Source of the DNA: Amphiscolops sp. MND2022
Taxonomy: Eukaryota
NCBI GenBank assembly: GCA_964187785.1
Contig: OZ076411.1
Coordinates: 20,646,001 to 20,710,000 of the forward strand
Direction: 5' to 3'
DNA: 64,000 nt
This document shows positions 1,015-47,973 of the stretch, one piece after another. How positions within the stretch are numbered: position 1 is the stretch's first letter; each line of letters opens with the position of its first letter. Made by a program: the position numbers and the translations under genes. Below the pieces are notes generated by a model that saw only the letters and a list, made by a program, of their open reading frames with translations, was not told the DNA's origin and did no database searches.

Positions 1015-3782
1015 ATGGAAAGTCAGGGTAAAAACATGCAAGACATCAGAAACATCCTCAACGGATTAAATTTAACAATGCACAAATGCCACTTTGGCGC
1101 AACGGAAATTGACTTCATAGGCAGGAAAGTTACCCAGGAAGGAGTAAAACCTCAGAAGAAACGAATCACAACCTTTTGGGAGAAAACCAAATTCTCAAAA
1201 TCCAAAATAGCTTTACAAAGGTACCGTGGGTTCCTCATCTAATACCGAAATTATTTTCCAAGGTTATCTGAAAAGTTAATGTCAATCTCCCAAGGGGCCT
1301 TAAAAGGGACGAGATGGTCCAGGTTACTACAGAACTGTTACGGCAGTTCAACGCAATCAATAAAGACCTTGACAAATGCAGTCAATAGACCTTGAAGCAA
1401 CCTCTGCCAAACAGACAACTAGTCCTAATGACTGATGCAAGTTTCACGGCAGCTGGCTATGCAATATTAACTGAAGAAGAGCCAAATCAGAAGTACACTT
1501 CTGTCAAAAAACCCTATGCGCCAACTGCATATGGATCCAAAACATTTACTGCTTCACAGCTCAAAATGTCAAGATATGCAACATAATTCTTAGCCATATA
1601 TTACGCCTTGAAAGATTTTGGACATAACTTCTGGCGAACAACCGAACCGATTTTATATCTCACAGATACAAATCGGTAACAAGATTCTTCCAGACCAAGA
1701 TAAAACCTCCACCGCTCTGGAACGCTGGCGATTATGTTGTCCAATTTAATTTTATCATAGCCCACATCCCAGGCAAGAACAATACTGTGGCAGACTATCT
1801 GTACCGTATGAAAATGGACACTAAAGAAAAACTGGTCTTAAAAATACAAGAAGATGTCGAAACCAGACCTATCAAAGTTATGTCTATTCAGGCGGAGTGT
1901 CAGAAGAGGAACAAGTGTTCTCCACAGAAGAAGACAATGAGATGGAAGAACAGATTTCGGAACGCAAGAAACTGTCTAAGATTGGACCTAAGGTCGACGA
2001 GACTGTCAAACCAATCGACTGTCATACAAATCGACATATTTCAGAATACTGTTGACAAAGTAACGAGTTTTACTCAAAAGTTACGTCAAACCAATTAAAT
2101 CATATTAGAAAAATCCAAAATCCCAATTTTGCTACAATTGAAAGCAAGGATCTTTTAGGAAAAATACTCACAGGAAGTACTCCAGCATGATATCCAATTA
2201 AAACACTATCTAAATGATTTAGATAGATTAGTCCACAATATAAACACTAAGATGAAACATGACAAGTCAAACACCACCAACCACCAAATTTTACTGCCGA
2301 AACACTTACCGAAAGAACTATTGCTTGCCCTACATGGGACAGCGCATAGAGATCCTGGCATATCAAAATGCTGCAAGATATTCGACAGAAATACTACTAC
2401 CCAGGAAATGCAAAACACATGAAAAGCGAAATCTGCGCCAAAGATATGCGAGTCCGAAATAGTACAATACCGCTTGAAATACTATATTAATTTATAGATT
2501 GGGATGCAGGCCCGGAAGACGCCATGCAAATTGACCTGTTACCAAATCTCACCACTAGTGGTAAATACCACACAAAAATGATCACAATGAAGTGTTTTCA
2601 AGATACATACTCGCCTAACCGTTACTTGAGGCAACAGCCGCCAATACAGTAGAGGTGATAATTGATATAATGACATTCTTATTTGCCGTCAACACTCATC
2701 ACTGGCAAAGGGTCTGCTTTTACATCAACCATCTTTGCGGAAATAACTTGAAAATGGCCTCAGGGGATACCGACGACAATGGCACAAACATCTGCCACTA
2801 ACAGTGCTCAACTATAATGCTACATATCATTCTAGTATTGGATGTGAGCCGAGCAAGGTCTTTCATGGGCGTATTCCCTACAAGGTTGTGAATCAGAAAC
2901 TGGCGATAAATTGAAACGAAAATTTCTTAACAAGGACCGATTTTGCGGAGAGGACTTACAGCAAAGAACGCAAATGCTTATCGATTAAGCGAAGCAAAAT
3001 GTAATGCAGTCTTTTCTGAAGTATAAAGAATAATTAGACAGGAAGACCAAGGCTAAGACGCTCAAAGAAAAAGACTATTGGTTTTTTTACAACCTAAAAC
3101 TGGCAGCCAAAGAACCAAAAGAAAAAATGCCGTTCCGGGCCTACAGGTGGATTGGGCCATATGTCATAGAAATTGTACTGCCAAATGACAACTATATAGT
3201 TCGATGCTTGAATACGAACAAAACGCAAATCCTACACTGTATCAGGCTTCAAAAATGTGTCCACAAAACTCCATTACAGGACAACAACAATGATGAAGAG
3301 TTACAGCCAGACGACGAAAGAGTAAAACCACAAAACGACTTGTATACTATTTCTTGGCAAGTCGATTTTGATTACGAGGTGTTCGAGCGGAGAAAAGATA
3401 ATTGGCCGGATACGGCCATAAGCCTACCGAACGACGATGCAGGCGGCCGAGTAGACTATTACGTCACCGGAGAGAATGAACGCAGCAGCCTAAATGACAA
3501 TGAACGCAGCAGCGAGAAAGGAATGGAAGCGACGGCAGTGAGAAGAAAGTAAAGCTGAGATCGGCCAGCAGCCGAGACGTGACGTCCTCACCAGACGAGT
3601 CGCCTAATGAGGCTGAAAATGAATTAAATGACGCGGAGAACGCTTCAAATGGAGGCTCAGATATTACCGTGCCCCGAATATCAGAAATTGAAAATTCTGA
3701 TGAAGTTTCTAGCCCTAGAGAAGGGAAACACAATCTTCGACCTAAACCAATCTCCAACTTTACTGAAGAATACAGATACTAG
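1015..3782 (+). pseudogene. pol: Gypsy pol remnant (RT C-terminus, RNase H, integrase, GPY/F module)
   Basis: KCHFGATEIDFIGRKVT (RT end); LVLMTDASFTAAGYA...AYGSKTF (RNase H); HIPGKNNTVADYL; QIDLLPNL...VFSRY (integrase core); RWIGPYVI (GPY/F); C-terminus NLRPKPISNFTEEYRY*. Many stops and frameshifts. Confidence 0.9.
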
Positions 3783-3972: not shown

Positions 3973-6900
3973 TTATTCTTTAGAGGATCCTCGCTGGGGC
4001 TCCTTCACAGAGTCATTTAGCTCGGAAGAGGTCACTTGCCCAAATAAAACCTTGTTTTTGCTCTCACTCGAAGAACGTCCTTTGCGTCTCTCGTCAGAAC
4101 TAGACGACGAAGATCCTATTCGATGGACGGCTGGCATAGAAATGTCCCCAAAGATTTGAATACGGTGATGAGTATCTTGCGGAAATTGCTTTCACGAAAG
4201 AGTCAATATGGGACGAATGGTGACCAGTCACGATGTCACTGCTAAATTGTTCCGCACGTTCATGGAACTCCCTCTGTTATGGAATCCGGAAAATTGGTCA
4301 AATAGGACTGCGCAGCTAAAATAACATATGAAAAGCGACACTTGGGATCATTGCCATCAACCCATTGGAATTTGACTGGTGGTTGCTCAACCGCCTCCTC
4401 GGTAAGACATAGACAACCCAATTGATTAAGTGAAACAGGTTTGCGCATGCGAAGTTCAGGCATCGCTTTGAGGAAGGCCACCTTGTCCTTGAAGACTTCA
4501 GGAGAGTCTTTAAACTCCACGTAGGTGCTGCGGAAATGGTCTAGGAACCCCAGGTATTCGTCGCGAGTATCTTACTCAGGTGATTTGGGCAGCCATCCTC
4601 GAAGGCTAAAACTGTTGTACAAAGCTTGCCATTCCACTGACGATGTCGGCGTTGAGTCTTATGTCCTTTTGTAAAGTCTCCAACAAGAAAACAAAGTAAC
4701 TCCAAGCCTTTTTCACAGAATTTTTGACTATTTGAGTTTTAGATTCCACAATTGAGTTGGCTGACTTCTTGTCGCTCAAATCGCGTGTGGTCTTGACCCG
4801 ACAGGCTCCATCCGAATCAGACAGTAATTTCAAGCGATAAAGGTTTTCTCGGCTCGGTAGCTGCCTTAGCTCTCTGACCCTGTAACTCGAGCATGGCCAT
4901 TCAATCCATTGCTCCAGGGACATGCTTGGGAAATAAGGCCCCGTAGCACAGCTTTCTCACGAAACGATGTAGCTGACCAAAGTTGAGGAAGGCAGAATCC
5001 TTGGGCCCGGGTAGACTCAACATGAAACTCTTTGTATCTAAACAACGAAGGACGGGATTTGGAAGGAGTGGAAGGCTTGTATCAAAGAGTAAAAGGCAAT
5101 AAAGGGCCTAGTGGTCATGGTCAAAATCCCAAAGACAAAAGATACAAGACTAACAGTCACGAATGATTCTGCCAAATAGTTCCAGTTTAACAGGGAAAAG
5201 CTCATCCATGATGATTAGCCATTCAAGATTCTGGGGCTAAAAAGAACAAATCTTATTAACCTATCATATGGAAGTATTGGACATCATATAGTCTGAGCTT
5301 GATTAAAGGGAAAAAAAGTATCTTGTTCCTGACTCCTTGCAAGGGCTGTGTTAGAGTGGTCTTGACTATATAATTCAGCACGACCTTCCAGTTTGTGAGC
5401 AGCTCAGAGCTTATGGCAGGGATTGAACTCAAAGAAAGATCACAGGTTGAGATAGCCTATAACACCTGGGACTGAAAGTCGTCCTGTATAGAACAAAATC
5501 CTAATGAGAAGTAAATTACATACTTGTGAAAGTGCAGGCATTCCTGTGAACTATGGCTGTTCTTGACAGCCATTGGGGATATGAGCGGGAACTTAAGTTG
5601 AGAGAAAAAATCGAATTTCTCAAAAACACCAGCTCCCAGCTGATGCATCAGGACTTCCGGGGACAGAAAACTGAATCTGAAGGGATGATGTATACCCTGT
5701 TGAAATAGTGTGCATCGATCCAATAAGTGGACCACCTCGACTATGCACCCGGACGTCCTTGGTTGAGAAGCGAATACTGAGAGGAGTCGCGAAGTTGTAT
5801 TAAGTATGCCTGTGGCTGGGTCACAAGAAAATTGGTAAGGGATTAAGTTTACTCGAACCAGGGAACTCGCTTTCCAGATGTGGATGTAACTAAACTATAC
5901 AGTCCTTTCTTTTTGAACTCAAAGGAGTAGAAGCTAGATGACGACGAAATCTGATGAGCGATGTCTGCGATAGCGCACAGGAAGATGTGATGGAAATTGG
6001 TCTGAAACCGAAAATCACGAGGGGCACAAGATGTTTAAAGTACCTCAACAAAAACCATTGCGCGATGGAAAGAAACTTACTTTGAGTGCGGTTGCTCCTC
6101 ATAAATAGGTGAGAAAAACTCTTGACGATTGGCAGTCACGCTCACTTGGGGCCAACGGGTTTGTAACAGAAGGATGTTGCCACAACCAGGTACAAATAGC
6201 CCAACGAGAGAGATCTGCATTGAAAGTCGTTTCTCTGAATCATTAGTGAAAGCTCCAACACCAGCTATATATTCATCTTAAAATGGATACTTAATACCAA
6301 TGTCTGCTAATTGCACATTGTCGTAAAACGGTTCTTCTTTCTCGAGATCAGGAATGGTTGAAATGTGACCGTCTTGTCCTCCGACATTGTTGCTCGTCAC
6401 TCTGGTGATCTTGATCACCTTCAATGAATGCTCATTCCTCCTCCGTTGATCCTTGCGGAGATGAGATTCTGACTAGTATTGCCGAATTATTTCTCGAGCA
6501 GCCTTTGAGTATATGGAAACGTTGGTTTTGAAAGTTTGGCAATAGAATTTTTAATTGTTGTGCTCTCGATCTAACGGCCCGGTGACAAAGGTCTTCGTCC
6601 ATTTTATGAATTTGAAATAGGCCTCCTCCTCTACTTTTCCTGGTTTGCTCAGAAGTTTTCGTCTTTCACGTGGGGGACTGGGAATGGTAGGGCTGGTGTC
6701 CACTCACCGCGCTGAGCACTTCTGAAGGGACTTGTGGGTTAGACCGATTCTCAACGGTCTCTTCGCTTGTTGCATGTGTGGCAGCCATTATTTCAGATTC
6801 TGATGCCTTTTGTGGATCGTCCCTTGAGTACCCTTATTCTTCCGATGAGAGAGTCTGCTGAACTGGCGCAAAGTTTGATCCTCTATAGTCGTTATACTCT

Positions 6901-7012
6901 CCAAGGTTCTTTCCACGTCTGCAGTGGGATTTTCCTCAGTAGGTGGATTCATAACATCAAGCAATTGGACTGACGGATTTTCAGGCACATCAATATTCTG
7001 CTTTGACGACAT
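3973..7012 (-). pseudogene. ~1000-codon degenerate antisense accessory ORF of Gypsy A; BED-finger/hAT-transposase-like
   Basis: The frame from ATG 7012 stays continuous through about 6050 with a few stops. It contains KWTKTFVTG...KFYCQTFKTNVSIYSKAAREIIRQY*SESH (decayed C2H2/BED-like finger, ~6455-6610), LLTNWKVVLNY (~5370-5405), NADIVSGMASF, RDEYLGFLDHFR and LGCLCLTE, and ends in a Ser/Lys-rich tail at stop 3973-3975. The family call is pattern recognition only. Confidence 0.6.
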
Positions 7013-7273
7013 GTCTTAGCAAAAAACATCTGTTAACGGCAAATTTCCTGCTTTGAGAAACAAAATGACGCGTTTAAACTCTTCCGGAAGTGACCAAAAC
7101 TGAACACTAGTATTATACAGTGTTTTTGGACCGGAGGTACGTGAATGTGACGAGAGCCCTAATCAAGCTGATTTCCGTTCAAATTTAAAGTTTCGAAACC
7201 TGAGAATTCTAACTTACAATTAACCAGAGAGGAAGAATTTTCCAGACAAAGACTGATTGGCAACGGAGAGGAT

Positions 7274-7592
7274 TGTTGGGGATACTGTGCTATACCCAAT
7301 GAAACGAGGAAACTGATGATCAAACCACAAGACAAAAAGATACGTAGAAGATAGGCGACTGGATGTCAGTCTTCCCATAGATCAACCGAAGATGATAAAG
7401 AGAGATGAAATACTACAAGAGAAATGCAACGGAAAAAACACTAAAGAGGACTCAAAGACTGAGGAACTAAATGAAGATTGAGTACTTGAGAAAACAAAAG
7501 GTTAATATAAATGAACTGAGAATGAAGAATTGACAAATAAAAAAGAATTGACAGAATGTCAGAATTGAAAATTGGTATTCGTGACTATTCTA
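7274..7592 (+). repeat. Probable 3' LTR of Gypsy A (~320 bp)
   Basis: Purine tract GGAGAGGA immediately before TGTTGGGG at 7274; TATAAAT at 7506 and AATAAA at 7536; ends near GACTATTC(T)A. No second copy in the window to confirm it. Confidence 0.5.
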
Positions 7593-7984
7593 TTTGGCGT
7601 CAAAATTCATGATTTTATGGTTTTTTGAAGATTCTGTGATATGTGGATAGAAACTGCGGATAGATATACACTATATACCCTTAAAGATTTTATCAGTTTT
7701 AACTTTTTTTCTATTATTGCAAAATTATTTTATTCTGTTCCATATATGGATTGAAGGCCATGATTGGCCATTTTCCCTGATGAATATCTCGCTGTGATCT
7801 TATTGGTCGACAGTTCAAGGACGAAGATCGCGATCAGCCAGCAACTGACCCATTTGAAAATTTAAGTGGTCGCAGAAGAAGAAAAAAACACTCAGTGGTG
7901 TGAAAATGGTCACTCACCGCCTGAAGGACATCAGAAGTGATAAAAAGTCAACAAAGCGGTGTCGGTTAATCATCAAAGACCTGA

Positions 7985-8277
7985 TTGCGTTGCTTTTGAG
8001 GAATTTTTTGAAGCAAGAATGTAAAAACCCGGGAAAAACCCTAACAAGTTTGGGGGATACCTAGAGAGAAAAAAATAATTCTGATTTTTAGTTTCGCGTC
8101 AGACAGTTCTTATCTTGGAACGTTGCTTTTGCGTTGCCTCTTGCGTTGCTTTTGAGGAATTTTTTGAAGCAAGAATGTAAAACCCCGGGAAAAACCCTAA
8201 CAAGTTTGGGGGATACCTAGAGAGAAAAAAATAATTCTGATTTTTAGTTTCGCGTCAGACAGTTCTTATCTTGGAAC
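7985..8277. repeat. Direct duplication of ~137 bp (period 156 bp)
   Basis: TTGCGTTGCTTTTGAGG...ATCTTGGAAC at 7985-8121 and 8141-8277, near identical; the spacer is made of GCGTTGC-like motifs. Confidence 0.95.
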
Positions 8278-8344
8278 TAGCACTAAATCAATCTTTGCAA
8301 TCAAAACTGTCAGGGTTGCGAAGGAGGCTATCAAAGAAAAATTC

Positions 8345-9151
8345 ATGCCCCAACAATTTCCGCTGGAAATTGAGGATAACCAGACCTCAGTGAGCAGCGT
8401 TATTTCTATCCCAAGTGACGAAGAGGACGCCATGGACTCTACGAGCTCAGCAACAGATGACCTGTCATCATCCGAAGAGGAGTCTGAGGAAATTGTCCTG
8501 ATGGCAAGAGTGCAGAGAGAGACAATTAGCGGACCCTTTTCCATTCCCTAGGCCGAGCTCCAAGGGAGGAGTTATGAGGGTTGTGACAACAAGTCCTGCA
8601 CTACCGCCTCATCCTAATTTTAACCATGCACACTTCTATTTTTGTCGTGGCAACGACCCAGTCCCTAGAGGGCGCAGATTAAAAGTAACCATGCAATCAA
8701 AATATGCAGAAACTTAGTACCATTCGCAGATACTCCGCTGTCCCCACCGCCTGAAGATAGATGGCCGAACTACGTACCAGAAACACCCGAATATGTATGT
8801 GACAAGGCAACGCTTACGGTGGAAACGATCTCTAGCCATTTTGACGAGATTGCTTTGACATAAACTGTGCCCTCGGCAGGATGCTCAGACTGCGTCGTAT
8901 GCGGGAAATCTGTATCGCAGATACAGAGTGAAACAACAGAAGACTACCTTCGCAAAACTGTGACGATTGGCGAAACAGCAGCTCAGAAAGGGAAACGAAG
9001 CAGAGCATTCCTTATCGGAATGGCCTCAAGGACTTTCCTTTTGATGCCAGGGGGATTGTCGCAGGCTGCCGCCTGCGATGGTAGTTGGTACTTTGTGTCG
9101 TACAATTACCATCGCACCCTGCCTGTGATAATCCCTGGACTGAATGGGTAA
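8345..9151 (+). pseudogene. Gypsy 3' accessory ORF (acidic/SIM-like N-terminus, CxxC domain) overlapping PPT and LTR start
   Basis: ORFs 8345-8551 and 8867-9151 are in the same frame, separated by a few stops. The C-terminal 65 aa align ungapped with the accessory ORF of the 24.9-37 kb array. Confidence 0.65.
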
Positions 9152-9440
9152 TTCCCTAATCATAATCTTCAAGGTTATTTTGTTCATGTTGCTAAATTCA
9201 TAGTACTTATGTTGCCGTGCAATTAGAATAATTGTTGCTTTTGTAGATGTAAAATTGTAGAAATTGGACACCAAGGCATACAGGCAAAGAAACGCCTTCA
9301 AATGTTTCCCTGCCTGGCGCGGCGGACATCAAGTCCTATTCAGTATTAACCAATCAGATCTCTCCAATTTAGAATTGATTTCATATATAAACTTGTACTA
9401 ATCAAACGAAGGCCTAGTAGGGCTTAGTGATAAGTTACAG
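9049..9440 (+). repeat. PPT (AGGGGGA) plus start of an LTR (TGTCGC at 9057); right boundary uncertain
   Basis: G-run followed by TGTCGCAG, at the same codon position (GGLS/AGLS) as the TGTCGCG LTR edge proven at 47973. Confidence 0.5.
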
Positions 9441-10139
9441 TAATTATTCATGGTAACTGACCTGTTGCGGCTTTTTTCGCTGAATTCTAAACCGATGCTA
9501 CTAAAAATACGAATTGGTACTCTTAAAAAGTGCACTGTGAAAGAAGCCATTTGCGGGGAAAGACGGAACAGAAACTTGGACGTGGCCTTCTTTAGTTCAT
9601 TTGAAATAATAATTTTGAACGATTTTATTTAGGCATGAACTTATTGTTGAAGACTAAATGTTGTCCATGAAAATAGTATTTCTAATATAAAAACGGACGT
9701 GAAGTCTTCCCACCTTTACTCATTTACCTGTGATTCAGCAAGGACGTATTCGGACCAGTCGGATGTTTGTCCTACATGCCGTATTAGTATACATGTATAC
9801 GTACATGTAGAAAGTTTCATACATGTATATGATTGCTGTCGATACTGTTATGTTCGGAAAGCCTAGCAGGTCATGTAAACAATTGTAGCCGCTAGGCTGT
9901 GATGTTTTTTTCAGAACTATTATTCGTCATTGGGCTAGTAAAGGATTCGATTTTTAGTTATTGTGATCCTATTTATAGCAACATGATGCCCTGAATTTGG
10001 ATATGTCATCCTCCGTGGGGTATATATAGACCGCCCAAGGAGGCTCTGGCACAATTCCGCTAGACAACTTTGAAAATACAAAAGAAAAAGAACAAAAATA
10101 AAAGTCGATAATCAAAATAATACACTCTCGCATACTTTT

Positions 10140-10760
10140 AATGTCATCTACAAGGAGACCAAAAGCAAAAGCAAAAATGTTCAAAGAGATGGACATGATG
10201 TGCGATTTTGACAAAATGGACGAGTGAGTCGGCAGTGGAAATGCAAACCCTATAGAAAGGGAGATAGCAAATATCATTGATGGTTCAGTCAATAACAACG
10301 AAACCAAAGCCTTCTTCCAACAAAGAGGGAATTCCTGACAGGAGAAAGAAAATAGGTTTTTTAGCGGCGAAAGTACTGTCCCTAGACAAGGTCGACTGTT
10401 TGAATCAATGGACATAATCTGAAATGAGATAAAAATGCGTCTCTCGCAGAGATGGACTACGTTGTGCCCTAAATGCAGTCTCAGATCAACACGGCTATAT
10501 AATCCGCAATTAACGATAGAGTCACTCCTGGAATACAAAATGATATGGGTTCACTGTTTTCACGTCAAAGAGACACTGAGTCCGGGACGTCCGGCAATTG
10601 TCAGGAGAACAACGATCAGGCAATAAGGGTTGAATACAAAAATAACAAAGAGGGAACCTAGTTCTTTTGATCTTAGCGACACTGGGGAATCAAGTCCTTA
10701 CACAGAGGATTTGTTTTGCTTGGATAAAAGAAACAATGAGAAATTAGTTTGTTCTAAGAG
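10140..10760 (+). pseudogene. Possible Gypsy gag N-terminal fragment
   Basis: Decayed frame MSSTRRPKAKAKMFKEMDMM...NPIEREIANII...NEIKMRLSQ...MQSQINTAI, a basic start followed by a coiled-coil-like region. Assigned from recollection of similar Gypsy ORF1 N-termini, not verified. Confidence 0.35.
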
Positions 10761-12209
10761 TTTTTTTCTGAGTCTTCTAGTCAGAAAGAACAAACAAACT
10801 TGTAATTTGGTGAAGGAGAAACAGATGTTTTGACTGGACTGCACGAGGCGGGAGAGAGGGGATCTTAGAGAGTACGCTGCGAAAAAGAAACGCGAGACAA
10901 GTCTTTCGAAGATAAAGCGTTGAGCCTTTAATTTGTACAAGAGAGAAGCTTTACCCAATCAACATAGGCAGTGCACTTCATTAGGTCCGAGTAAAATTCG
11001 TCATGGCTTCGGTACATATTTGTTTATGGATCAAGAGGCGGACGGGTCGACTGTTAGTTGGGAGAAATTTTCATCAGCCAGCTTAACGGGTGAATCGTGA
11101 AGGCTAGCCGACGCAATTCTTGAAAGTCCTGCCGAAAAATTTTTTTTCAAGTGGAGGTATTATTCGCGACTAATCAGCTTTTCTTCTAAGGTAGAAAAAC
11201 TCCGCGCACAAGGTGCTTCAAAGATTTCCATCCAGGAACAAATATTAACTCTAGTGGACTCTTGTTAACTTTAAAAAACAAATTTGCGCAATTGGCAAAG
11301 TTATTATTTAAAAAGAGAATCTCGTCTCACAAGTGACGCGCAGCTTTCTGTTTGTTCACTTTTAATTGCTATCAAGCATAGCCGCCGTGGCTTTGAAAAG
11401 TGTGAAGATTGTGCCGATTGATTTCAAATAAACGAAAAAAGTTTTTCTAGCTCCGATACAAACTTCAATTAAAGCTTGTTCTGCAAAATTTTTCAATTTT
11501 TGAACTCGTCTGTAAAAAGGTGATTGGGGTACACAGTTTAAAGGTAATTGCAGTACGTTTCAGATTCTACGTTTCTCAAAGCTTCTGTTAATGACTCATT
11601 AACTCGAATACACAAACTAATTTTCCCAAACTTTTGATATCTTTCTATCTCGTTTGATTTTGTTCACATGGTTTTTGACTTCGATACTGAACCGTTAATT
11701 GACAAATAGAACTTTATGAGCCGTTTATTGGCGCTCCTGACATTAACTTTAATCTTATTGGCGCTCCTGATATTAAAACGATGCTGAATTTACCAACCTA
11801 AAGGTCAAATAAAAGCGTTCCCTACAAACATTTCTCCCTAAATTTGATTCAACATGTGTCCTGAAACATGAACATTTGTCCCCAGTTTTTGAGATCCTGT
11901 TTTGTAAAACTCGTCCATGTATCGTTTTTTTTTACAAAACATGGTATTGGACACCCTTTCTCGGTGGCCACCATTCTTAGTTGCCACCCGCCTCAGCGGA
12001 TGCCACCTCTGAGTGGTAACCCGTCTAAGTGGTAACCCATCAAGCTCGTCATCTGGGAGTGGAAAAAATAACATTTTCCGCTTCTCCTCTCTCTAAAGCT
12101 AAATAATTTTTGGATTGTGCAGAGCAACTTCTGATTGCAGTTCACACTTCACCAATAAAGTTTACAAGCAACCCAACCTAGGCTTAGCGTAACGGCTGTT
12201 TAGGCTATG

Positions 12210-13164
12210 TGTTGGCGCCAGTCAATTGCAAGATCAGAAACTCAAATTTGAACGTGACTGATTAAATTTATAACTCAAAACACTTAGAAAACTTATCTAG
12301 ATTTTAGTTAGAAATTTACAAGTTTCACCAGAAATAAAGCATTGCAAAATGTCCCGCCCCCCCGTCCCGGTGAACCACTCCATCAATCACCTTGAAACTT
12401 AGCACACATATAGTGGTGGTGTTCCCCTAACTTTTCACTCGTAACAAGCTACCCCGTATCTCCCCTGGGTTCAGAGCAATTAACACCCAAAGTGACCTAG
12501 GTCGGACCCCATGAAAACCCAATTTTGATGTATTAATTATTATAAGATTTTCTCATTTGACCTTGAAGGAAATGTAACTCCGTTGACATTTATCATATTT
12601 ACATTATGTAAACATACTTTTTAACCCACCTGACCAACATGCCAGAACTACCACATTCTTTGTTTACATAGCCAATAACTTCATATTATGCTTTAAATGT
12701 CATTTATTTATACAACATATTTTAAAAGATATTTGCTTATATTTACCCGTAGAATTGTAAACCATATGTATACCATTATTAGATAGAGATTTTCTCCACT
12801 GTATAGCTATAGTCAAGTTGGGTCTCAGGACCGCGAGACTAATTAATCAACTTCTCAATCTTCACAACTTTTCGCTAGAGTCAGAGCGACTAAGTAGCTA
12901 CTCTCATAGTTGGAGAGCCGGAGCGCGTGAAGATACCGTGAGGGAAGTGTGTGCAGCATCACATCGGATCCAATTCAGTGCAAGAGGAATCGCTGGAGAT
13001 TCCACGGGTCACATCGGACCCACCAGTCAAAAGATACAGTCCTATAAAACACGAAAACCAGCAATTGTTTAGTGACGGTCCACAGCACTAAGCAACGGAT
13101 CAGGGCGGCGTAACTTAAAAGCTTGTCAAGCCTCAGCGCAGGATAAAGGCAAGCAGCCGTTACA
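12210..13164 (+). repeat. 5' LTR of BEL/Pao element (955 bp)
   Basis: Near-identical to 16680-17628: about 12 substitutions and one 6-bp indel counted by eye. TG...CA termini. Confidence 0.97.
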
Positions 13165-13166
13165 TT

Positions 13167-13182
13167 TGGTCCGCCGACCCGG
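13167..13182 (+). promoter_or_regulatory. Primer binding site TGGTCCGCCGACCCGG (tRNA-Tyr-like variant)
   Basis: Starts with TGG 2 nt after the LTR end and resembles the BEL-type PBS TGGTCCTTCGAGCCGG. Confidence 0.75.
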
Positions 13183-13289
13183 ACAACTCTTTGGTGGACG
13201 ACCCGGACTAGAAGAAGACGACTCGTTGGTGTACAACAGAGAAAATTGCCCAGAAGGAACAAGTGTCTGATTCTTGGAGTCTCTGACTT

Positions 13290-13496
13290 TGTGTCTCCGG
13301 GAGATTGGGCTACTGTGTCTCTGGGAGATTGGGCTACAGTGTCTCTGGGAGATTGGGCTATTGTGTCTCTGGGAGATTGGGCTATTGTGTCTCTGGGAGA
13401 TTGGGCTATTGTGTCTCTCGAAGATTGGGCTTTTGTGTCTCTGGGAGATTGGGCTATTGTGTCTCTGGGAGTTTGGGCTATTGTGACTTTGGGAAC
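13290..13496 (+). repeat. 24-bp minisatellite (TGTGTCTCTGGGAGATTGGGCTAT) x8 plus a partial unit, in the BEL 5' leader
   Basis: Read directly; several frames are open because the unit is a multiple of 3 and lacks stops. Confidence 0.98.
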
Positions 13497-13520
13497 TGAG
13501 TTCAATCGACAAGAGAAGAG

Positions 13521-15062
13521 ATGGCAGAACCAAAACGGTTCGATATCAACAAAATCGAAAACTTTCTGAAGAACTCTGCTGACAAAGCCCAAACGTTGAG
13601 TTATTGGAAGGCAGCTGTTGAACACGGTAAGACTGTTAAAGAAATTGATGAGAACCTAACTAGCAATGTTGACGACAAGCAGATAGCAGCTTTACTGCTA
13701 AGACGAACAGATGCCATAAACAGGAGGGATCGGCTCATTAAGGCAGTCGAAAATGCGATCAAAGTCAAGTATCAACCGCAGATACCCGAAATCTTCTCAA
13801 CAGTGAACAAAGAAATGCAGAGCCGATTGGCTGAGTTGCAGCAGCAAAGCTCTAGCGTTGGAAGGGTACAAATGCTGATGTCAGCATTGCAAGACGAAAA
13901 TCAGATACTAAATTACTTGGATCTTGACGAAAAGAAACGCGCTATTGATAGACTAATGGATAGCAACAAAAAGTTGCGGGAAGATTCAATCGCAAATGGC
14001 AAAGTTGTCGACGAAGAAGATTATGCTGCAGCATGTCAAGAATTGCTGCAGAAACGGTCTGACATTAAAACGAAGATTGAAGATCTGCTGAAGACAGGAG
14101 AAGGAGGAGCCATTTTGCGAAGTCTTGAAGACGCTGAGCAAAGACTGGCAGACGCTCGGGTAAACTCAGCCGCAGACAAATCAAATGGCACTTCACCACA
14201 AAAGGAGCCCGAACCAGACGAGGAGCAGAAAGAAGACAATGGTCATAACGCGGATGACAGCCAAAAGCGAAACAAATGTGCTAGATCATTGCCAATAGAA
14301 GAATTGAGCATACACTCGCGAAGTAAAAGAACCAAAAGCAACAAAACGTCTGTGATTTCAAAAACATCAAGTGCAAGACGAGTTCTCGATTTGGAACTAA
14401 ACGCTTTGAAAGAGCAAGAAGAGTTGCAAAGTCGCCTGGAGAAACTCAGACGCAATGCGGAACAAAATGAAATAGCAGACTTACAAGAAAAGCTGGCCCG
14501 CAAAGCCAAAATAACCGAAAAGGAAATGGAGATGGCGAAAGTTACGAGTAGTTGTGGGTCTAGTTTCCGGAGTATCTCACCAGTCGAGACTCCAGACGAC
14601 AATCTGACGAAAGTCTCAGATTGGATGGACAAGACAGAAGAAGCTGAAAACGTGGCATCGACGACTAACGTGCCATCTGTATACCAGCAAACGTCCGTCT
14701 CAGCTCCAGTAATAACAGCACAATCGATGCATGAAGGACAATGCTCCGCGCTAGTGAGGGACTTGAATCCTCCAGTGAAACCGACTATATCCACCGAAGC
14801 CGCTAGTCGAGGTATTGGAAAGCACAGAACAAAGACTGTCATAGATGCTGTCAGTCAAAGTGCAACAGCACAACCAGAAGTGAAATTCGCCCCATCGAAG
14901 CCGTCGATGACTCTCAGTGCAGACCCGAATCGGTTACCGCCTACGTTTGGAGGCATCCAGAGTGGTGCATTTCAAGTACCACAGCTTGCGAACACACAAA
15001 AACAGTATTTGCCCAGTCAAGGACCAAACTTTGCCTCATCAGATCTAGCTTGCCAAAATTGA
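13521..15062 (+). CDS. gag: BEL/Pao gag N-terminal region (513 aa, coiled-coil and low complexity)
   Basis: Long open ORF starting at ATG downstream of the PBS; continues in the -1 frame into the DUF1759-like region. Confidence 0.8.
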   Translation: MAEPKRFDINKIENFLKNSADKAQTLSYWKAAVEHGKTVKEIDENLTSNVDDKQIAALLLRRTDAINRRDRLIKAVENAIKVKYQPQIPEIFSTVNKEMQSRLAELQQQSSSVGRVQMLMSALQDENQILNYLDLDEKKRAIDRLMDSNKKLREDSIANGKVVDEEDYAAACQELLQKRSDIKTKIEDLLKTGEGGAILRSLEDAEQRLADARVNSAADKSNGTSPQKEPEPDEEQKEDNGHNADDSQKRNKCARSLPIEELSIHSRSKRTKSNKTSVISKTSSARRVLDLELNALKEQEELQSRLEKLRRNAEQNEIADLQEKLARKAKITEKEMEMAKVTSSCGSSFRSISPVETPDDNLTKVSDWMDKTEEAENVASTTNVPSVYQQTSVSAPVITAQSMHEGQCSALVRDLNPPVKPTISTEAASRGIGKHRTKTVIDAVSQSATAQPEVKFAPSKPSMTLSADPNRLPPTFGGIQSGAFQVPQLANTQKQYLPSQGPNFASSDLACQN

Positions 15063-16102
15063 AGTTGGCAGAATTCTCAGGTGACCCATTGGAGTGGCCA
15101 GAGTGGTCACAACTATTCCAAGCAACCGTCCATGCAGCGAACATAGACGACAGTGTAAAAATGAACCACCTGAAAACAATGGTCACGGGTAAAGCGAAAG
15201 AGGCTATTGCTGGTCTGGGTTACCTTGCTGAGATGTACAATGTGGCGTGGAACGTTCTAGTTCGAAATTTTGGAAAACCTCAAATGGTTGTGAACGCGCA
15301 GTTGAAGCGAATCTATTCGTTCCCTCCGATGAAACCGTATGACGGAGCTGCATTGATCAAGTTCGCGAGAATAGTGTCGAGTTGCGTGAATGTCCTGAAA
15401 CAATTCAACTACGTGGGAGACCTAAACTCAGAAGGAGTTCTGGACAGTGCCACAAGGAAGTTAACACTGGACATGAAAACGAAGTGGCTGACTTATGTCA
15501 AGCAACTGAACCTGTATCAACCGGGACTCGCTGTGTTCAGTGAATGGCTCAATGATATAGCAGATGTTCAAGATGAATTGCTATTGTATTCGAACCCAAA
15601 TGCTGATCGGGCAAAGACGAGCTACAAGGAAAAGGCCGACGGCTCTACGTTCGCCTCCTCGACAACAAGCTCGGCAAATGGCAACTCGAATTACCAGCGA
15701 GAGTGTGCGCTGAAAGATGGCAAACATCCAATATGGAAATGTGAGAAGTTCAAGAAGATGAATGTCGAAGAAAAGCAACCAACTCAAATGCAAGCCGTGA
15801 AGTTCGCTGCCAAGACAATAACACTTGAAGAAGGAAAAAGGTGTTTTCAATTGGAAAAAGTTGTTGGATTCGTGAAGGAGTGTCTTCGATACATCGCTTT
15901 TCCTCTTGAACTTCATGGAGGTTCAAGGGGAGTTCCGGTGTACCAGAGACACACCAGCAGTGGTTTGTTGGAATGCTATCAGCCGTCAATAGACAATGCA
16001 AAGATTGGAACAAATGCTGCAAATATGTCATTTTGGAGAAAATATGATGTTGAGTTGAAAGAAAAACTGCAAACGACAGTGAAAATTGTAACAACTGGTT
16101 AG
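15050..16102 (+). CDS. gag: BEL/Pao gag core (DUF1759-like) fused to scraps of pol
   Basis: PKLKLAEFSGDPLEWPEWSQLF...KMNHLKTMVTGKAKEAI...RNFGKP; partial knuckle CALKDGKHPIWKCEKF; the sequence after that is a patchwork. No protease, RT or RNase H motifs found. Confidence 0.85.
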   Translation: MPKLKLAEFSGDPLEWPEWSQLFQATVHAANIDDSVKMNHLKTMVTGKAKEAIAGLGYLAEMYNVAWNVLVRNFGKPQMVVNAQLKRIYSFPPMKPYDGAALIKFARIVSSCVNVLKQFNYVGDLNSEGVLDSATRKLTLDMKTKWLTYVKQLNLYQPGLAVFSEWLNDIADVQDELLLYSNPNADRAKTSYKEKADGSTFASSTTSSANGNSNYQRECALKDGKHPIWKCEKFKKMNVEEKQPTQMQAVKFAAKTITLEEGKRCFQLEKVVGFVKECLRYIAFPLELHGGSRGVPVYQRHTSSGLLECYQPSIDNAKIGTNAANMSFWRKYDVELKEKLQTTVKIVTTG

Positions 16103-16283
16103 GTAATGGAAACTCGGGAATGGATGCAGTGGCACAAGCTAACCCTAACGTGCACACTCAACTGAGCACTGGCCACTGCAAGCAATTCGAGAAACGAGCT
16201 TGGAAGTTTGAACCTATCTCAATTCGATTACATGGAATGAACGAAAGCGCTCAGTTGAATACAATGGCATCCTACATGCAAAT

Positions 16284-16679
16284 ATGAATGCAGATGAATT
16301 TCCAGATGAAATATCGCTAATGGAAACGCGATTGAGTTCTTCAAAAGCACAAACAACAGCAAACTCGGAAAATGGGCCTTTCATAGGGCCGGGTGTATCA
16401 TGGGAAGAAATGATGATGCAACTTCAATCTTTTGGAAAATGGATTAAAGAAGAAGTTAGACAACTGGAAGTCAATGATTTGGTTTGGATAGTAGATGACA
16501 ATGTGAAAAGAGCACACTACAAGATGGGCAAAGAGTTGGAAGTCTATCATGGAAGCGATGGGCGAGTGAGATCAGCGCTGGTGAAAACTGAAGATAGATG
16601 GAAAACTGAAAAGACCAGTAAAGAAACTGGCACCCATGTTCTACGAAAGTGTTTTTCAGGAGAAAAACAAGGCCGGCAA
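16284..16679 (+). pseudogene. BEL/Pao integrase C-terminal region (DUF5641-like) and PPT
   Basis: KWIKEEVRQLEVNDLVWIVDDNVKRAHYKMG...YHGSDGRVRSALVKT; purine tract GGAGAAAAACAAGG just before the 3' LTR. Confidence 0.85.
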
Positions 16680-17628: not shown

Positions 17629-17877
17629 CTATGATTTTGTGTGTACTCCACGTAAACATTCGATAGGACTTCGGTTTTTAAAGTAAATAGCATAGGAGTA
17701 CAAAAAACCCCACATTCCAATTGGACTTCGCTCATTTTTGACATTTCGGTTCTTCTCAAAAAATACTAAATCGAAAACGCCCGTTCGGCCCGTGGTGAAA
17801 CCTCACCAATGCACTCAACTATCTCCAAAAAACCAACTTATTAAGCAAACTTCTTATTTTCTACCCCTTAATCTCCT

Positions 17878-26291: not shown

Positions 26292-27311
26292 TCACTGGTG
26301 CACTCCGTATCCGTCGCACCTTTGTGGACGCGAAAGTCCTGCAATTTTAAAGATATACAATGCGGCCTCCAGCCTATCGAAGAAGGCCCTTGATCTCACT
26401 GCACGCACTCTGACAGTCTCTCCGTCGTAAACGGTTGCAACAGGATAGTCTCCCGAGGTCTCTAGGGCCACTTGATCAAAAGTGCAACCACACCAGTCAC
26501 AACATCCAGAGACGTTGGGCATAACTGTGCGAAACAGCCGGAAGTTTTGCCTCTTGCTGACTGTCATCAGGAGAACGTTAGTGCTGTGTAGAATGTTAAA
26601 CGGGAACCCGAGTTGGGTAACTTGTTGAGATGGTCAAATAAGGTTGGCTGGGACGTCTACCATACATCTGGGAAGCAAATGTATTCCTATTGGGGTGATG
26701 TCGCTTACAACCAGGTATTGCGATTCTTCTGGTATAAACGGCGTTTGAAGATGTGTGCCTTCTGGCTCATGTGTTGAAAGATTTGTAATTTTCTAGCTAT
26801 TCATTTTAATTGCTCGGACGTGCTGGAAGTTGGATGATTCTTGCGAGAAATCCGGGAGGTATGTTGGTATTGGTCTGACTATTTCGATTGATTGTTGTCT
26901 AGATATCCTTGGTGTGGGTAGTATTTCAGCAATGAGTCGACCATATCTATTTATTTGTATTTCGGATCCTTCGGCACGGACTCTTGGTGACATACTCATT
27001 TCTTCAATTTCGCAATCTATGAAAGACAAAGGGGATTTAGAAGAAGACAACGGATTTTCTTCTATCAGTTCCATGGTATCTCGTTCGATACGGTTACCTG
27101 CAGTGTCGATGGTCCCAATTGATCATCTAAGTTGAAAGAAGGAAACAATGCAGCCGTTGCAGAACCCACAAAAGCTGCTATGATGTTAGATCCCATGGTA
27201 ACAACCCTAAACTTTTCGTCTAGTTGTGTGATGTTACCGGGTTCCTCTTCTCCAGATTCACTGGATATGTCGATTACGTCTAGGGAGATGGGCGAATAGC
27301 AAGAGATTCAT
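26292..27311 (-). pseudogene. Gypsy 3' accessory ORF, array unit 1 (SIM-like N-terminus, CxxC domain, reads into LTR)
   Basis: SPISLDVIDISSESGEEE...SGCCDWCGCTFDQVALETSGDY...GET...RSRAF...AGLSRPQRCDG; stops and frameshifts present. The LTR edge falls at 26335, inside the ORF. Confidence 0.65.
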
Positions 27312-28134: not shown

Positions 28135-28405
28135 CGCATACTGCCGCATACTCGTAATTGCTCGAAACATATGCTGCCGCATACTTGTTTGTATTAATTT
28201 CCGCATACTGTCGCATACTCGTCATTGCTCAAAACGTATGATGCCGCATACTTGGTTGTATTGGATTCCGCATACTGCCGCATACTCGTCATTGCTCAAA
28301 ACGTATGATGCCGCATACTTGGTTGTATTGGATTCCGCATACTGCCGCACACTCGTCAATGCTCGATACGTGTGCTGCCGCATATTTGTTTGTTTTGAAT
28401 TCCGC
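28135..28405. repeat. 67-bp tandem repeat rich in CCGCATAC (4 copies in unit 1; 3 copies in units 2 and 3 at ~31910-32125 and ~35790-36000)
   Basis: Unit registers at 28154, 28221, 28288 and 28355. Confidence 0.93.
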
Positions 28406-30238: not shown

Positions 30239-31258
30239 TCACTGGTGCATTCCGGATCCATCGCACCTTTGTGGACGCGAAAGTCCTGCAATTTTAAAGA
30301 TATACAATGCGGCCTCCAGCCCATCGAAGAAGGCCCTTAACCTCACTGCACGCACTCTGACCGTCTCTCCGTCGTAAACGGTTGCAACAGGATAGTCTCC
30401 CGAGGTCTCTAAGGCGACTTGATCAAAAGTGCAACCACACCAGTCACAACATCCAGAGACGTTGGGTATAACTGTGCGAAACAGTCGGAAATTTTGCCTC
30501 TCGCTGACTGTCATCAGGAGAACGTTAGTGCTGTGGAGAATGTTAAACGGGAACCCGAGTTGGGTAACTTGTCGAGATGGTCAAATAAGGTTGGCTGGGA
30601 CGTCTACCATACATCTGGGAAGCAAATGTATTCCTATTGGGGTGATGTCGCTTACAACCAGGTATTGCGATTCTTCTGGTATAAACGGCGTTTGAAGATG
30701 TGTGCCTTCTGGCTCATGTGTTGAAAGATTTGTAATTTTCTAGCTATTCATTTTAATTGCTCGGACGTGCTGGAAGTTGGATGATTCTTGCGAGAAATCC
30801 GGAAGGTATGTTGGTATTGGTCTGACTATTTCGATTGATTGCTGTCTAGAGATCCTTGGTGTGGGTAGTATTTCAGCAAGGAGTCGACCATATCTATTTA
30901 CTTGTATTTCGGATCCTTCGGCACGGACTCTTGGTGACATACTCATTTCTTCAATTTCGCAATCTATGAAAGACAAAGGGGATTTAGAAGAAGACAACGG
31001 ATTTTCTTCTATCAGTTCCATGGTATCTCGTTCGATACGGTTACCTGCAGTGTCGATGGTCCCAGTTGATCCTCTAAGTTGAAAGAAGGAAACAATGCAG
31101 CCGTTGCAGAACCCACAAAAGCTGCCATGATGTTAGATCCCATGGTAACAACCCTAAACTTTTCGTCTAGTTGTGTGATGTTACCGGGTTCCTCTTCTCC
31201 AGATTCACTGGATATGTCGATTACGTCTAGGGAGATGGGCGAATAGCAAGAGATTCAT
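30239..31258 (-). pseudogene. Gypsy 3' accessory ORF, array unit 2
   Basis: Near-identical to unit 1; LTR edge at 30282. Confidence 0.65.
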
Positions 31259-33946: not shown

Positions 33947-34966
33947 TCACTGGTGCATTCCGGATCCATCGCACCTTTGTGGACGCGAAAGTCCTGCAAT
34001 TTTAAAGATATACAATGCAGCCTCCAGCCCATCGAAGAAGGCCCTTAACCTCACTGCACGCACTCTGACCGTCTCTCCGTCGTAAACGGTTGCAACAGGA
34101 TAGTCTCCCGAGGTCTCTAAGGCGACTTGATCAAAAGTGCAACCACACCAGTCACAACATCCAGAGACGTTGGGCATAACTGTGCGAAACAGCCGGAAAT
34201 TTTGCCTCTCTCTGACTGTCATCAGGAGAACGTTAGTGCTGTGGAGAATGTTAAACGGGAACCCGAGTTGGGTAACTTGTTGAGATGGTCAAATAAGGTT
34301 GGCTGGGACGTCTACCATACATCTGGGAAGCAAATGTATTCCTATTGGGGTGATGTCGCTTACAACCAGGTATTGCGATTCTTCTGGTATAAACGGCGTT
34401 TGAAGATGTGTGCCTTCTGGCTCATGTGTTGAAAGATTTGTAATTTTCTAGCTATTCATTTTAATTGCTCGGACGTGCTGGAAGTTGGATGATTCTTGCG
34501 AGAACTCCGGAAGGTATGTTGGTATTGGTCTGACTATTTCGATTGATTGCTGTCTAGAGATCCTTGGTGTGGGTAGTATTTCAGCAAGGAGTCGACCATA
34601 TCTATTTACTTGCATTTCGGATCCTTCGGCACGGACTCTTGGTGACATACTCATTTCTTCAATTTCGCAATCTATGAAAGACAAAGGGGATTTAGAAGAA
34701 GACAACGGATTTTCTTCTATCAGTTCGATGGTATCTCGTTCGATACGGTTACCTGCAGTGTCGATGGTCCCAGTTGATCATCTAAGTTGAAAGAAGGAAA
34801 CAATGCAGCCGTTGCAGAACCCACAAAAGCTGCCATGATGTTAGATCCCATGGTAACAACCCTAAACTTTTCGTCTAGTTGTGTGATGTTACCGGGTTCC
34901 TCTTCTCCAGATTCACTGGATATGTCGATTACGTCTAGGGAGATGGGCGAATAGCAAGAGATTCAT
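33947..34966 (-). pseudogene. Gypsy 3' accessory ORF, array unit 3
   Basis: Near-identical to unit 2; LTR edge at 33990. Confidence 0.65.
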
Positions 34967-45050: not shown

Positions 45051-47040
45051 TAGGGGTTGTTTTTAATCATTGCAAGACGTTTTTATTGTGAAGTGATTTT
45101 TAGTTGAGTGGTGCATTTCTGAGGTTGAATATATTTTGGGGGAGGTTGGTTGTTTTGTAACATAGTTCTCTGGTGCATCGTGTAAGAGTTCATATACGTC
45201 TTCGTGATGAGTTTCTGGGGTTGAATGTTGAAGATTTTGCGTTGTTAGGTCGGTTTCAACTACTGTGGTTTTTGTTGAGTTTGAACTCGGTGTATGCTGC
45301 CAGTCATCTATTGAGTTTTGTTTTTGTGGTGAATTTGTGTAAAGGCGTGGCGATTTTAGTTTAACTCCTTCGAAAAGGATTGTTGTTGTCGTTCAATTTT
45401 CGGTCTAATTGGCTCGTTGGCCTGCTTGTATTCTGCTTGTATTCTTTTGCGCCTCAGTTAGGTTCCATTTAGGTGGCCTATTATCCATAATAGCACCAAA
45501 ATAGCAATATGCTTCGTCATGACACGGGGTTTTGCTGATGGGACATTTAGGTGCTTCCGGGTCTTCTTCAAGTTTACGCCGTTTGGCTAGTTTAGAGCAG
45601 TCAGTCATCGTATGGATGGTCTCTTTGCAATAAGGGACATTGGTCATTCTTACATTTTTAAGTGTTTTATCGACTACCGTTTTCGGCGTTTGTTTTTTGG
45701 TTGTTTCCTTTATTTTTGGTTGAGTTTTTCAGTGTTTTGTTCTTTTTTGGTGACGGTCATTTGAGTTATAACGAGAGGTTCGTCTGCCTCTAGACCGTTA
45801 CGTTCCATCTCTCTTTCGAGATGTTTGACGATTTGATTGTATGTGCCATTTTCAAAGTAGGCTTGATCAATGGACTTTTTGAGGGGGGAGGCATTTTAGC
45901 ATAGAGTAAATTCTCTACCATTTGGTGGGCGTTGTCCCCAAACGCTTTCTCGGCACTTTCTTGGAGTTCTTCAAGGAAATCCGGAAGTTTTCGATTCTCT
46001 CGGTCAAAAAAGAGCCTGTTAAATCAGTTCTTCGCAGATGCACAGGACCCCGGTTTACCTATTTTCTGCGAAAGACCTTTAGAATATATTTCAAGGTCGT
46101 ATTTGGAGTTCTTTGTATGTTTTTGAATGTTTTGAGTGCCAAACCTCTCAGATGTGCTTGAAAATTGTTAATCTTCATTTCTTCTGTTAAGTTTGGTTGC
46201 ATTCGGAGTATTGCGTGCAACAGGTTTTTAAAATATTCGAATTTCTCACTTTTCCCGTTTTTCCCGTTGAAAATGAATGTGTTTTTGGGATGAAATAAAG
46301 ACTCTGGGGGGTTTTTTAGTTCGCCAGTTTTACTATTGCAATTGCAATCTAGTTTACTGGGTCAAGTGGTTTTCCTGTCAAGTTTTGCAAGTTATTGTCT
46401 GCGTGGGATCCTATTGTGTCGTTTAGTTTTTGTGACCTTTGCCTATGGAGTTGTCGGTTGGCTCCTGTCACCATGTGATATTCCTCCTCATCGGATTCTT
46501 CATTTTAGGGTATTGTTACATCCACGACTGATTCATTGTGGAATAATGGTTTTTCAGGATGTTTCAAGTCTTTCATTTTTGAAGCTCTCAGAAGATAATC
46601 ATCGTTTTCAGAATCTGATTTTTCGTTGTTTGATGGGCGAACTCCTCTAGACTTATCTATTTTGGATCCCGAAGGTTGTGGGTCTTGTACTTCAATAACA
46701 TTTGACCTTGCGTTTGTAACCATTGATTGATTTTTGTTGGTTTTAATTTCTCTCAGAATGGGTTCCAATTTGTTGTTCAATTCTTCTCTCATCTTTTCAC
46801 GTCTATCGTTGTTCTTTTTTTCGAATATCTGAGTCCAGACTTGCATCTCATTGCTAATTTGACTGGGTTCAGTCAACTGATTGCTTGGGTTGTTTTTGCC
46901 TAAATTTTCCTGGACTACAGTATTAAAATTACTTAAAGTCTCATTACCTGTGTTGGGTGTTTCGACTTGGGTATTGCCTTTTTCTCTCTCTGTAGAGGGT
47001 GTTTCTAGTTTCCTAGACCTTCTATTTTTTATTGCTCATC
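45051..47040 (-). pseudogene. gag: Gypsy B gag/ORF1, degenerate
   Basis: MSNKK..RRSRKLETP...TEPSQISNEMQVWTQ...; capsid-like FNGKSEKFEYF...EEMKINNF..HLRGLALKTF; Cys/His remnants CPISKTPCHDEAYC. Confidence 0.75.
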
Positions 47041-47973
47041 TCACTCAAATGAAAATGCTTGCTTTGCAGGGTTAAGAATTTGCATTAGATCTTGATGTTT
47101 GTTAGAGACAAACTGGGATGATCAAAATTTCTAGGGAAAGAATAATTTTTTCAAGTTGTGAAGATATTCAGAACAAACTGCATTTTAGGAAGGTTGTATT
47201 TTGTCTAAATGCTCTCTTATTTTCCAAACGTTTCCGAAAATCAAGAATGGATGACACGAAGTTTTACTGACATCATTGCTGGAAAGGTAAAAATAGCAGA
47301 ACGTCAGAATCCCGTCATTTTATTTATAATTTCTGAGTCATCTTTCCATGACGTCAAAATGCACTCAAACGGAGTTTAGAGGACCCTCGAATGACGTTAA
47401 ACAATGAAATATACAACTTTCCAACTCTATATATTGAAGCATGGAAGCAATACTTCAAATTAGCACGAACACTATTAAAACGTATAGTACCGCATATACG
47501 TCACTCCTCGAAACGCAGGGTGACCTATAACAGCATGAATGGTAAAAGCGTATACTGACGTATATACGTCACTTATCGAACCGCATAGTGACGTATAATG
47601 GGTGTTGTAAAGATGCACAATTTTATCAAATGACATTGTAAAAGCGCATAACGCCTTATATACGTCAGTACTCAAAACGTATAGTGACGTATGCAATCTG
47701 CAATGGACAATACAAAATGAGATATAAGAACAATGTTAACGTCATGGGGGGGGGTAAAATCATCATTAAGACCTCTCAAAATAATCAAAATATATCAAGA
47801 CCTTAGTCTTATGAAGTGAACTCAAAACATAACCCTGACTAAACAAAAAGGTGTACAAACAAATGGACTACATGACTGATCAATAAGTTTCTAATGTCTA
47901 TTAGTTTGTTGCAGACGTTGTTTATCTTTTCACTGATGCACTCTAGATCCATCGCACCTTTGTGGACGCGACA
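47041..47973 (-). repeat. 5' LTR plus leader of Gypsy B (outer edge exact, inner edge not resolved)
   Basis: TG start at 47973; diverged homolog of 25400-26335, 29350-30282 and 33070-33990. Confidence 0.8.

Follow-up and report, generated by a model that had tools for sequence, protein, structure and literature searches.

In the window, as the whole 64,000-nucleotide stretch analysed here is called, a sense frame ahead of a 3' LTR appears to run through the polypurine tract (PPT) into U3. The locus raises the question of whether this frame is the remnant of a protein-coding gene kept by selection or a trace of DNA or RNA constraint near the LTR end and, if it is a gene, what its product might do. 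The original prediction proposed an uncharacterised accessory family of LTR retrotransposons, with a CxxC domain and an N-terminus resembling SUMO-interacting motifs (SIMs), possibly directed against the SUMO pathway or silencing. Transposon-encoded counter-defence proteins are scarce in animals. SUMO is described as central to transposon silencing in flies and mammals in the part of the literature drawn on here (bioRxiv 10.1101/533091).

Decayed copies in the window

The window holds decayed copies only, and continuity of the frame is seen only in intact copies elsewhere in the genome. The frame at 8345-9151 belongs to a clade-A element with the following recognisable parts:

1045..3781, plus strand: pol of the same clade-A element, decayed (RT, RNase H, integrase)
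4196..6640, minus strand: antisense gene, decayed exons (matches 6640-6113, 5995-5577 and 5041-4196), head-to-head with the accessory gene
8345..9151, plus strand: clade-A copy of the sense accessory gene, decayed, with five internal stops
8399..8428, plus strand: N-terminal SIM-like motif (hydrophobic core plus Ser/acidic residues)
8483..8503, plus strand: second SIM-like motif, in reverse orientation (acidic, then hydrophobic)
8690..8761, plus strand: middle conserved block, H-x-I-x-x-C ... D/E-S/T-P-x-S-P-P
8891..9082, plus strand: C-terminal domain, 64 residues, gap-free (CxxCG, two predicted helices, then G-[V/L]-S...C-D-G)
9049..9055, plus strand: polypurine tract, coding Pro-Gly-Gly; LTR pairs fix its place beside the LTR start
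9057..10702, plus strand: 3' LTR, TG...CA, holding the first part of gag from 10141
9058..9079, plus strand: hairpin at the beginning of U3; its compensatory changes fall on synonymous positions

The internal stops lie at 8549, 8615, 8621, 8666 and 8861, and the terminal stop (9149-9151) is 95 bases into the 3' LTR. The frame retains 45% identity to the intact protein P0001 over 251 columns. The TG at 9057-9058, which provides bases 2-3 of a Leu codon after the purine tract, is the LTR start: the cognate 5' LTR (L027:6319) starts with the same bases. This 5' LTR (L027:6319-7868) lies a short way before the window, and its identity with the 3' LTR has fallen to 76-78%, which marks the clade-A insertion as old. 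The forward SIM pattern has been lost from the 8399..8428 motif of the decayed copy; intact relatives do fit it. The type of middle block found at 8690..8761 is common to clades A and C and to members outside them, and is absent in clade B.

The second set of copies, on the minus strand, is not a separate family. The 3.7-3.9 kb array (24907-34953) is a tandem triplication of the 3' end of a single clade-B element, comprising accessory gene and 3' LTR, and all its accessory copies are frameshifted. The parts of this element are:

46489..47973, minus strand: 5' LTR (46489 marks where the match stops rather than the LTR boundary)
47029-45359, minus strand: gag
45380-40780, minus strand: pol
37183-40201, plus strand: antisense exons
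33947..34953, minus strand: decayed accessory copy, first of the three tandem units (gene with 3' LTR)
30239..31245, minus strand: decayed accessory copy, second tandem copy
26292..27298, minus strand: decayed accessory copy, third tandem copy

The 65-residue block at 8891-9085 aligns without gaps to the array copies at 26501, 30448 and 34156 (minus strand), as had been noticed at the outset. The 26 identities first given mix different copies, single copies giving 24, 25 and 25 of 65, against a mean of 4.1 and a maximum of 15 in 10,000 shuffles. Eighteen of the identities lie upstream of the junction hairpin codons. DNA identity between the two blocks is 32-33, 34 and 13 of 65 at codon positions 1, 2 and 3, with third positions at background, a signature of protein-level conservation. 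The placement of the LTR-initial TG within the Gly-Leu-Ser codons was correct for the window copy and wrong for the three array copies themselves, from which this TG is absent; it is kept in the cognate clade-B 5' LTR (47973) and in intact clade-B copies. Similarly, the predicted N-terminal motifs are present (8399; 27280, 31227 and 34935), but within the window they do not share an open frame with the CxxC block.

Intact copies and element layout

Genome searches found intact frames in number. Using the window block and the array block as queries, 150 of 150 scored matches were obtained in each case, as in one further search, and a third type, P0071, gave 141 of 141, all these counts being lower bounds. 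Most matches listed sit in open frames of about 290-370 codons. The full-length accessory frame was recovered from 91 locus records, 28 of them distinct at 92%. The intact protein comprises about 260-350 residues and is present in numerous copies of at least three clades, its frames of 260-350 codons staying open across clades that are 30-40% identical.

Eleven elements were examined on both sides, three of which are uninformative or rearranged. The LTR starts within the G-[V/L]-S codons in 8/11, so that all informative elements agree, and a clean 5-bp target-site duplication flanks six of the eleven, all among the eight whose LTR pair starts at TG. The LTR pairs are 99-100% identical with TG...CA ends, and the primer-binding site (PBS) after the 5' LTR starts with TGG. 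The accessory frame crosses the PPT and ends 14 codons (clade B) to 29-30 codons (clades A and C) inside U3. All three clades share the same layout: LTR with the start of gag, PBS, gag, pol, antisense gene, spacer, sense accessory gene and LTR. The LTRs measure 1.5-1.75 kb and the non-coding spacer about 1.2-1.7 kb. A Pfam search recognised capsid and zinc knuckle in gag, and pol follows the order protease, (dUTPase), RT, RNase H and integrase. By these sequence features, the accessory gene belongs to a Ty3/gypsy-type (Metaviridae-like) LTR retrotransposon lineage.

Several details of these elements can be added. Clades A and C carry the dUTPase between protease and RT (L034:5300-7999, L122:4524-8834); it was not detected in the one clade-B pol tested. 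In all three clades gag starts about 180-200 codons inside the LTR (window 10141-10702; L002:2685-3227), so every 3' LTR bears a truncated gag frame; an arrangement with the accessory gene upstream of gag was dropped, the gag start being inside the LTR. In clade B the tract before the LTR (L055, L047, L070) contains no clean purine run and codes K-N-A-G, in recent elements with 99% LTR identity. In one clade-A copy (L030:8684-9457), the end of the accessory frame is changed by about 700 additional bases, which are flanked by a duplicated 38-base stretch of the LTR-start hairpin.

At E<=0.001, a profile search with the domain retrieved 391 cluster representatives, of which many are probably decayed copies belonging to the same host. 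For two members, P0066 and P0247, the scored genome matches include no close copy (best 56% and 41%). In addition, two metagenome contigs contain long open relatives, 36-40% identical and with the same junction, one of them without a DNA match to this genome beyond the hairpin. On this sequence evidence, the family therefore occurs in at least one other host. Among viral contigs, 15 pattern matches were obtained and none was confirmed.

Selection on the protein and the junction hairpin

When all pairs of natural intact copies are taken together, pS is 0.73-0.77 and pN 0.21-0.30; synonymous sites have reached saturation, which leaves JC-corrected dN/dS over these pairs undefined. Estimates were thus made on the unsaturated pairs, 4/36 in clade A, 2/36 in clade B and 4/21 in clade C. 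For the 50-codon core, which lies wholly upstream of the PPT, pN/pS is 0.08 (A), 0.06 (B) and 0.09 (C), where DNA constraint alone would give a ratio of about 1. The N-terminal 60 codons give 0.13-0.23, and the tail within U3 gives 0.11 (A) and 0.22 (C).

A different signal is found at the PPT/U3 junction. Here 14 codons show pS lowered to 0.20 (A), 0.37 (C) and 0.57 (B), versus 0.73-0.87 elsewhere, and they form a covarying hairpin at the LTR start with folding z from -3.1 to -0.5. In 29 distinct junctions, the third positions of the Ser and Cys codons pair as G-C 22 times, as A-T four times and as G-T twice, with one mismatch. These data would favour the view that no protein is made and that the similarity reflects DNA or RNA constraint near the PPT and LTR end. 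Elsewhere, however, amino acids are conserved though synonymous sites are saturated, third positions agree at only 13/65 between clades and the long frames stay open; such an explanation is refuted for the core, true for the junction codons only and, for the gene as a whole, scarcely credible. Nucleic-acid constraint is limited to the 14 junction codons, and the core is conserved as protein. Accordingly, the conservation of the GLS...CDG tail, first taken as that of a protein, is so in part, the hairpin dictating some of it. Selection on protein and on hairpin is superimposed on the same codons at this junction. The accessory gene almost certainly encodes a selected protein.

A short match to the LTR-start motif at 50419-50460 of the window is probably the start of another degraded LTR. 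An Rfam search of 6600-10800 found nothing near threshold.

Anatomy of the accessory protein

The 64-residue C-terminal domain is gap-free in 32/32 sequences, with invariant Cys 0, Cys 3, Gly 4, Glu 27, Ser 56, Cys 61, Asp 62 and Gly 63; P0184, which is without CxxCG, was left out of the domain tree. The predicted structure of P0001 contains two confident helices (residues 197-211 and 219-235, pLDDT >80) and disorder elsewhere. A fourth Cys/His metal ligand common to all clades was not found in the 32 sequences, where only the three Cys (0, 3 and 61) are invariant. The predicted CxxC domain thus stands as regards its single CxxC, but not as a recognisable zinc finger, with only one distant further Cys invariant. 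A three-Cys or shared metal site is conceivable.

Hydropathy analysis of 16 members revealed no transmembrane segment, the highest 19-residue value being 0.8-1.5 in 15 of them and the exception lying upstream of the probable start. The first 70 residues carry a net charge of -7 to -21 in 15/16 members, and that of the C-terminal domain ranges from -4 to +2, neutral to acidic. No basic NLS is conserved; 6/16 members have a cluster of basic residues. Lysine accounts for only 1.6% of the protein (0.9% before the CxxC) versus 4.5-8.2% in the other frames of the element; lysine depletion is a trait of proteins working near ubiquitin or SUMO ligases.

The region upstream of the CxxC was searched for SIM patterns known from the literature. 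They occur in 21/24 diverse members (17 forward, eight reverse), versus 3.6 +/- 1.7 in block shuffles, and in none of ten gag or antisense control frames. The members are related, so that these are not 24 independent trials, and three of the 24 have neither pattern. The SIM-like N-terminus proposed at the outset is hence conserved far beyond chance. Its form varies: clade C has a reverse-type SIM instead of the forward core, and P0247 carries the motif at another position. A pattern written after the sequences had been seen fits 12 of 22 within the first 60 residues. Only S-S-[D/E]-[D/E/S], a generic acidic phospho-patch, is common to all clades. The region is predicted to be disordered. Judging from these patterns, the N-terminal motif probably binds SUMO, a view held with some reserve. 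The host genome has a SUMO gene, whose nearest named relatives are those of two acoels (80-83%), which makes an acoel the probable host. In Drosophila, SUMO and SIMs are reported to recruit SetDB1/Wde in transposon silencing, in the portion of the study considered (bioRxiv 10.1101/533091).

Relationship to known systems

The accessory protein found no match in Pfam (one sub-threshold, P0163), PHROGs or NCBIfam (two sub-threshold), and no usable match in the ESM Atlas. Solved-structure sequences gave a 15-residue C2H2 match only (E 0.0065), taken as that of the CxxCG alone. A low-confidence model of the domain (mean pLDDT 57.6) reached a best Z of 3.6 among 48,161 chains in a fold search and had no match to viral folds at E<=0.001, results that speak for neither a new nor a shared fold. 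No known domain explains the protein in these searches. The prediction of an uncharacterised LTR-retrotransposon accessory family is borne out, with intact copies, purifying selection and a frame through the PPT into U3. A search of mostly open-access literature found no description of the family; Repbase-type annotations and supplements to acoel genome papers may already list the elements.

Genes overlapping the PPT and U3 are known in retroviruses, namely HIV/SIV nef, MMTV sag and foamy-virus bel2/bet. As in these, the frame described here crosses the PPT and ends in U3, and its product is, like theirs, a small, partly disordered and putatively host-interacting protein. However, no sequence homology to them was found in Pfam or among solved-structure sequences, the protein has neither a myristoylation Gly nor a transmembrane anchor, and the element, which has no env, is not a retrovirus. 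The gene seems to work like a retroviral U3-overlapping gene without belonging, by the searches run, to any of those families. SIM-bearing viral antagonists of SUMO/PML silencing, such as HSV ICP0, and the transposon anti-silencing protein VANC of VANDAL resemble it, by analogy, in the proposed mode of action and in acidic Ser-rich SIMs on a disordered arm, whereas no RING or VANC domain and no homology is found here.

Extra ORFs between pol and the 3' LTR have been described, in the parts of the reports drawn on, for the plant Ty3/gypsy elements Grande (gene23), RIRE2 and Retand (TRP28), for Athila/Bagy2 (env-like) and for Boty of Botrytis (PMC7264820; PMC11963269). Boty also has an antisense ORF (PMC7264820). 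The present family differs from these in its animal host, in having no Transposase_28, SMC or env match, and in combining a sense gene with a five-exon antisense gene; moreover, its sense gene overlaps the PPT and U3, which the consulted sections do not describe for the others (PMC7264820; PMC11963269). In bdelloid rotifer LTR retrotransposons, the ORF3 types given in the portion of the paper used are env, GDSL, DEDDy, coiled-coil and TM (PMC5408684). Those elements are likewise invertebrate and Ty3/gypsy-like, with a dUTPase in pol and a non-env third ORF; in contrast, no enzyme, coiled-coil or TM match is found here, and their description, as far as it was covered, includes neither SIM nor U3 overlap (PMC5408684).

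The antisense neighbour and modular recombination

Between pol and the accessory gene lie three long antisense frames, which are exons of a single spliced gene. As reconstructed from five clade-A copies, it has five coding exons, delimited by GT/AG sites and in agreeing phase, about 1,200 codons in all, and it is intact in L021, L023, L025, L026, L029, L064-L069 and L122-L123. All exons tested are under purifying selection (pN 0.16-0.60 versus pS of about 0.8). Exon 1 contains an NLS-like motif and, by eye, a BED-like C2H2 finger, and the last exon resembles hAT dimerisation and GTF2IRD2-like clusters by language-model features only (0.92). Neither Pfam nor a profile search using 99 frames of ten host hAT loci supported a hAT origin. 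The antisense gene may be as interesting as the accessory gene itself.

All three clades have the two genes in head-to-head orientation. Short non-coding blocks of the spacer are conserved within clade A. A search ahead of the accessory start codon revealed no conserved splice acceptor shared by the clades. Comparison of L021, L023, L025 and L026 shows modular recombination, in which pol, the antisense gene and the accessory gene with its LTR differ in their nearest relatives. L021 and L023 share 99% in the accessory gene, 75% in the integrase and 40-46% in the antisense exons, while L023 and L025 share 95% in the integrase and 64% in the accessory gene.

Proposed function

The best reading, put forward tentatively, is that the accessory protein may be a nuclear SUMO-binding adaptor or decoy set against host silencing; an anti-silencing purpose is suggested with equal caution. 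The accessory transcript would arise from an internal promoter, located in the spacer and also serving the antisense gene, and would end in the 3' LTR. Its product would act in the nucleus as an adaptor or decoy, with one or more phosphorylatable SIMs binding host SUMO on silencing factors and the C-terminal domain binding a second partner, which may be the antisense finger protein or a host factor. This would weaken the SUMO-dependent repression exerted on the LTR of the element. Several points speak against this: the generic acidic phospho-patch would also suit an acidic activation domain, there is no conserved basic NLS, and the joint movement of gene and LTR among pol lineages is accounted for no less well by an LTR-specific regulator.

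Such a regulator, cognate to the LTR and acting on transcription or RNA fate, is the main rival, though a rather unlikely one; the acidic arm would be its activation domain and an Arg-bearing second helix would bind the LTR or the U3 hairpin, with foamy-virus Tas/Bet and HTLV Tax/Rex as comparators. The strongly acidic arm (15/16 members), the movement of gene and LTR as a unit between pol lineages (L021/L023/L025) and the conserved hairpin at the U3 start are consistent with it. Nevertheless, a neutral to acidic C-terminal domain is poor for nucleic-acid binding, physical overlap alone explains the linkage to the LTR, and an activation domain needs no ordered hydrophobic core of the SIM pattern. 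An env-like protein for cell-to-cell spread is highly improbable: the gene has the env position and sense, between pol and the 3' LTR, but a signal peptide with transmembrane anchor was not found, hydropathy is low, and the protein is mostly predicted to be disordered and unmatched among viral folds.

The head-to-head arrangement, with both genes under purifying selection, and an antisense product with an NLS-like motif and BED-like finger would suit a two-protein module with the antisense finger protein, or a particle or integration cofactor steering integration to SUMO-marked or open chromatin. A precedent is the human BED/hAT protein ZBED1, reported in the part of the paper drawn on as a SUMO ligase relieving Mi2-alpha repression (PMC7471704). 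The two genes recombine freely, which argues against tight co-evolution, and the hAT relationship comes from one feature-based search and was not seen by profile search; this module or cofactor is regarded as unlikely, and roles other than those listed here are given a similarly small share. Returning to the SUMO-binding adaptor or decoy, it could be extended to a two-gene counter-silencing cassette, in which the accessory protein and an antisense finger gene possibly derived from hAT would jointly neutralise SUMO-dependent silencing, a proposal that is speculative and more doubtful than not.

If true, the cassette would help to explain the LTR-element load of these genomes, the sequenced genomes of the host group being about half LTR elements in the portion of the source used (PMC9911081). 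The accessory family itself is compact, strongly selected and unannotated, and SIM-SUMO binding is the specific prediction for it. It belongs to an env-less invertebrate element of retrovirus-like complexity, with a U3-overlapping gene, a spliced antisense gene and a gag start within the LTR.

Other features of the window

A further decayed LTR element occupies 12210-24900. It has a direct repeat of 955 bp (12210-13164, 16680-17628), a gag-like frame with DUF1759 at 14807-16102 (Pfam) and, by eye, a Bel/Pao-like integrase end near 24391-24900. Finally, an 819-bp unit is repeated in tandem at 54419-64000; the units are 96-98% identical and each contains an open frame of 119 codons.
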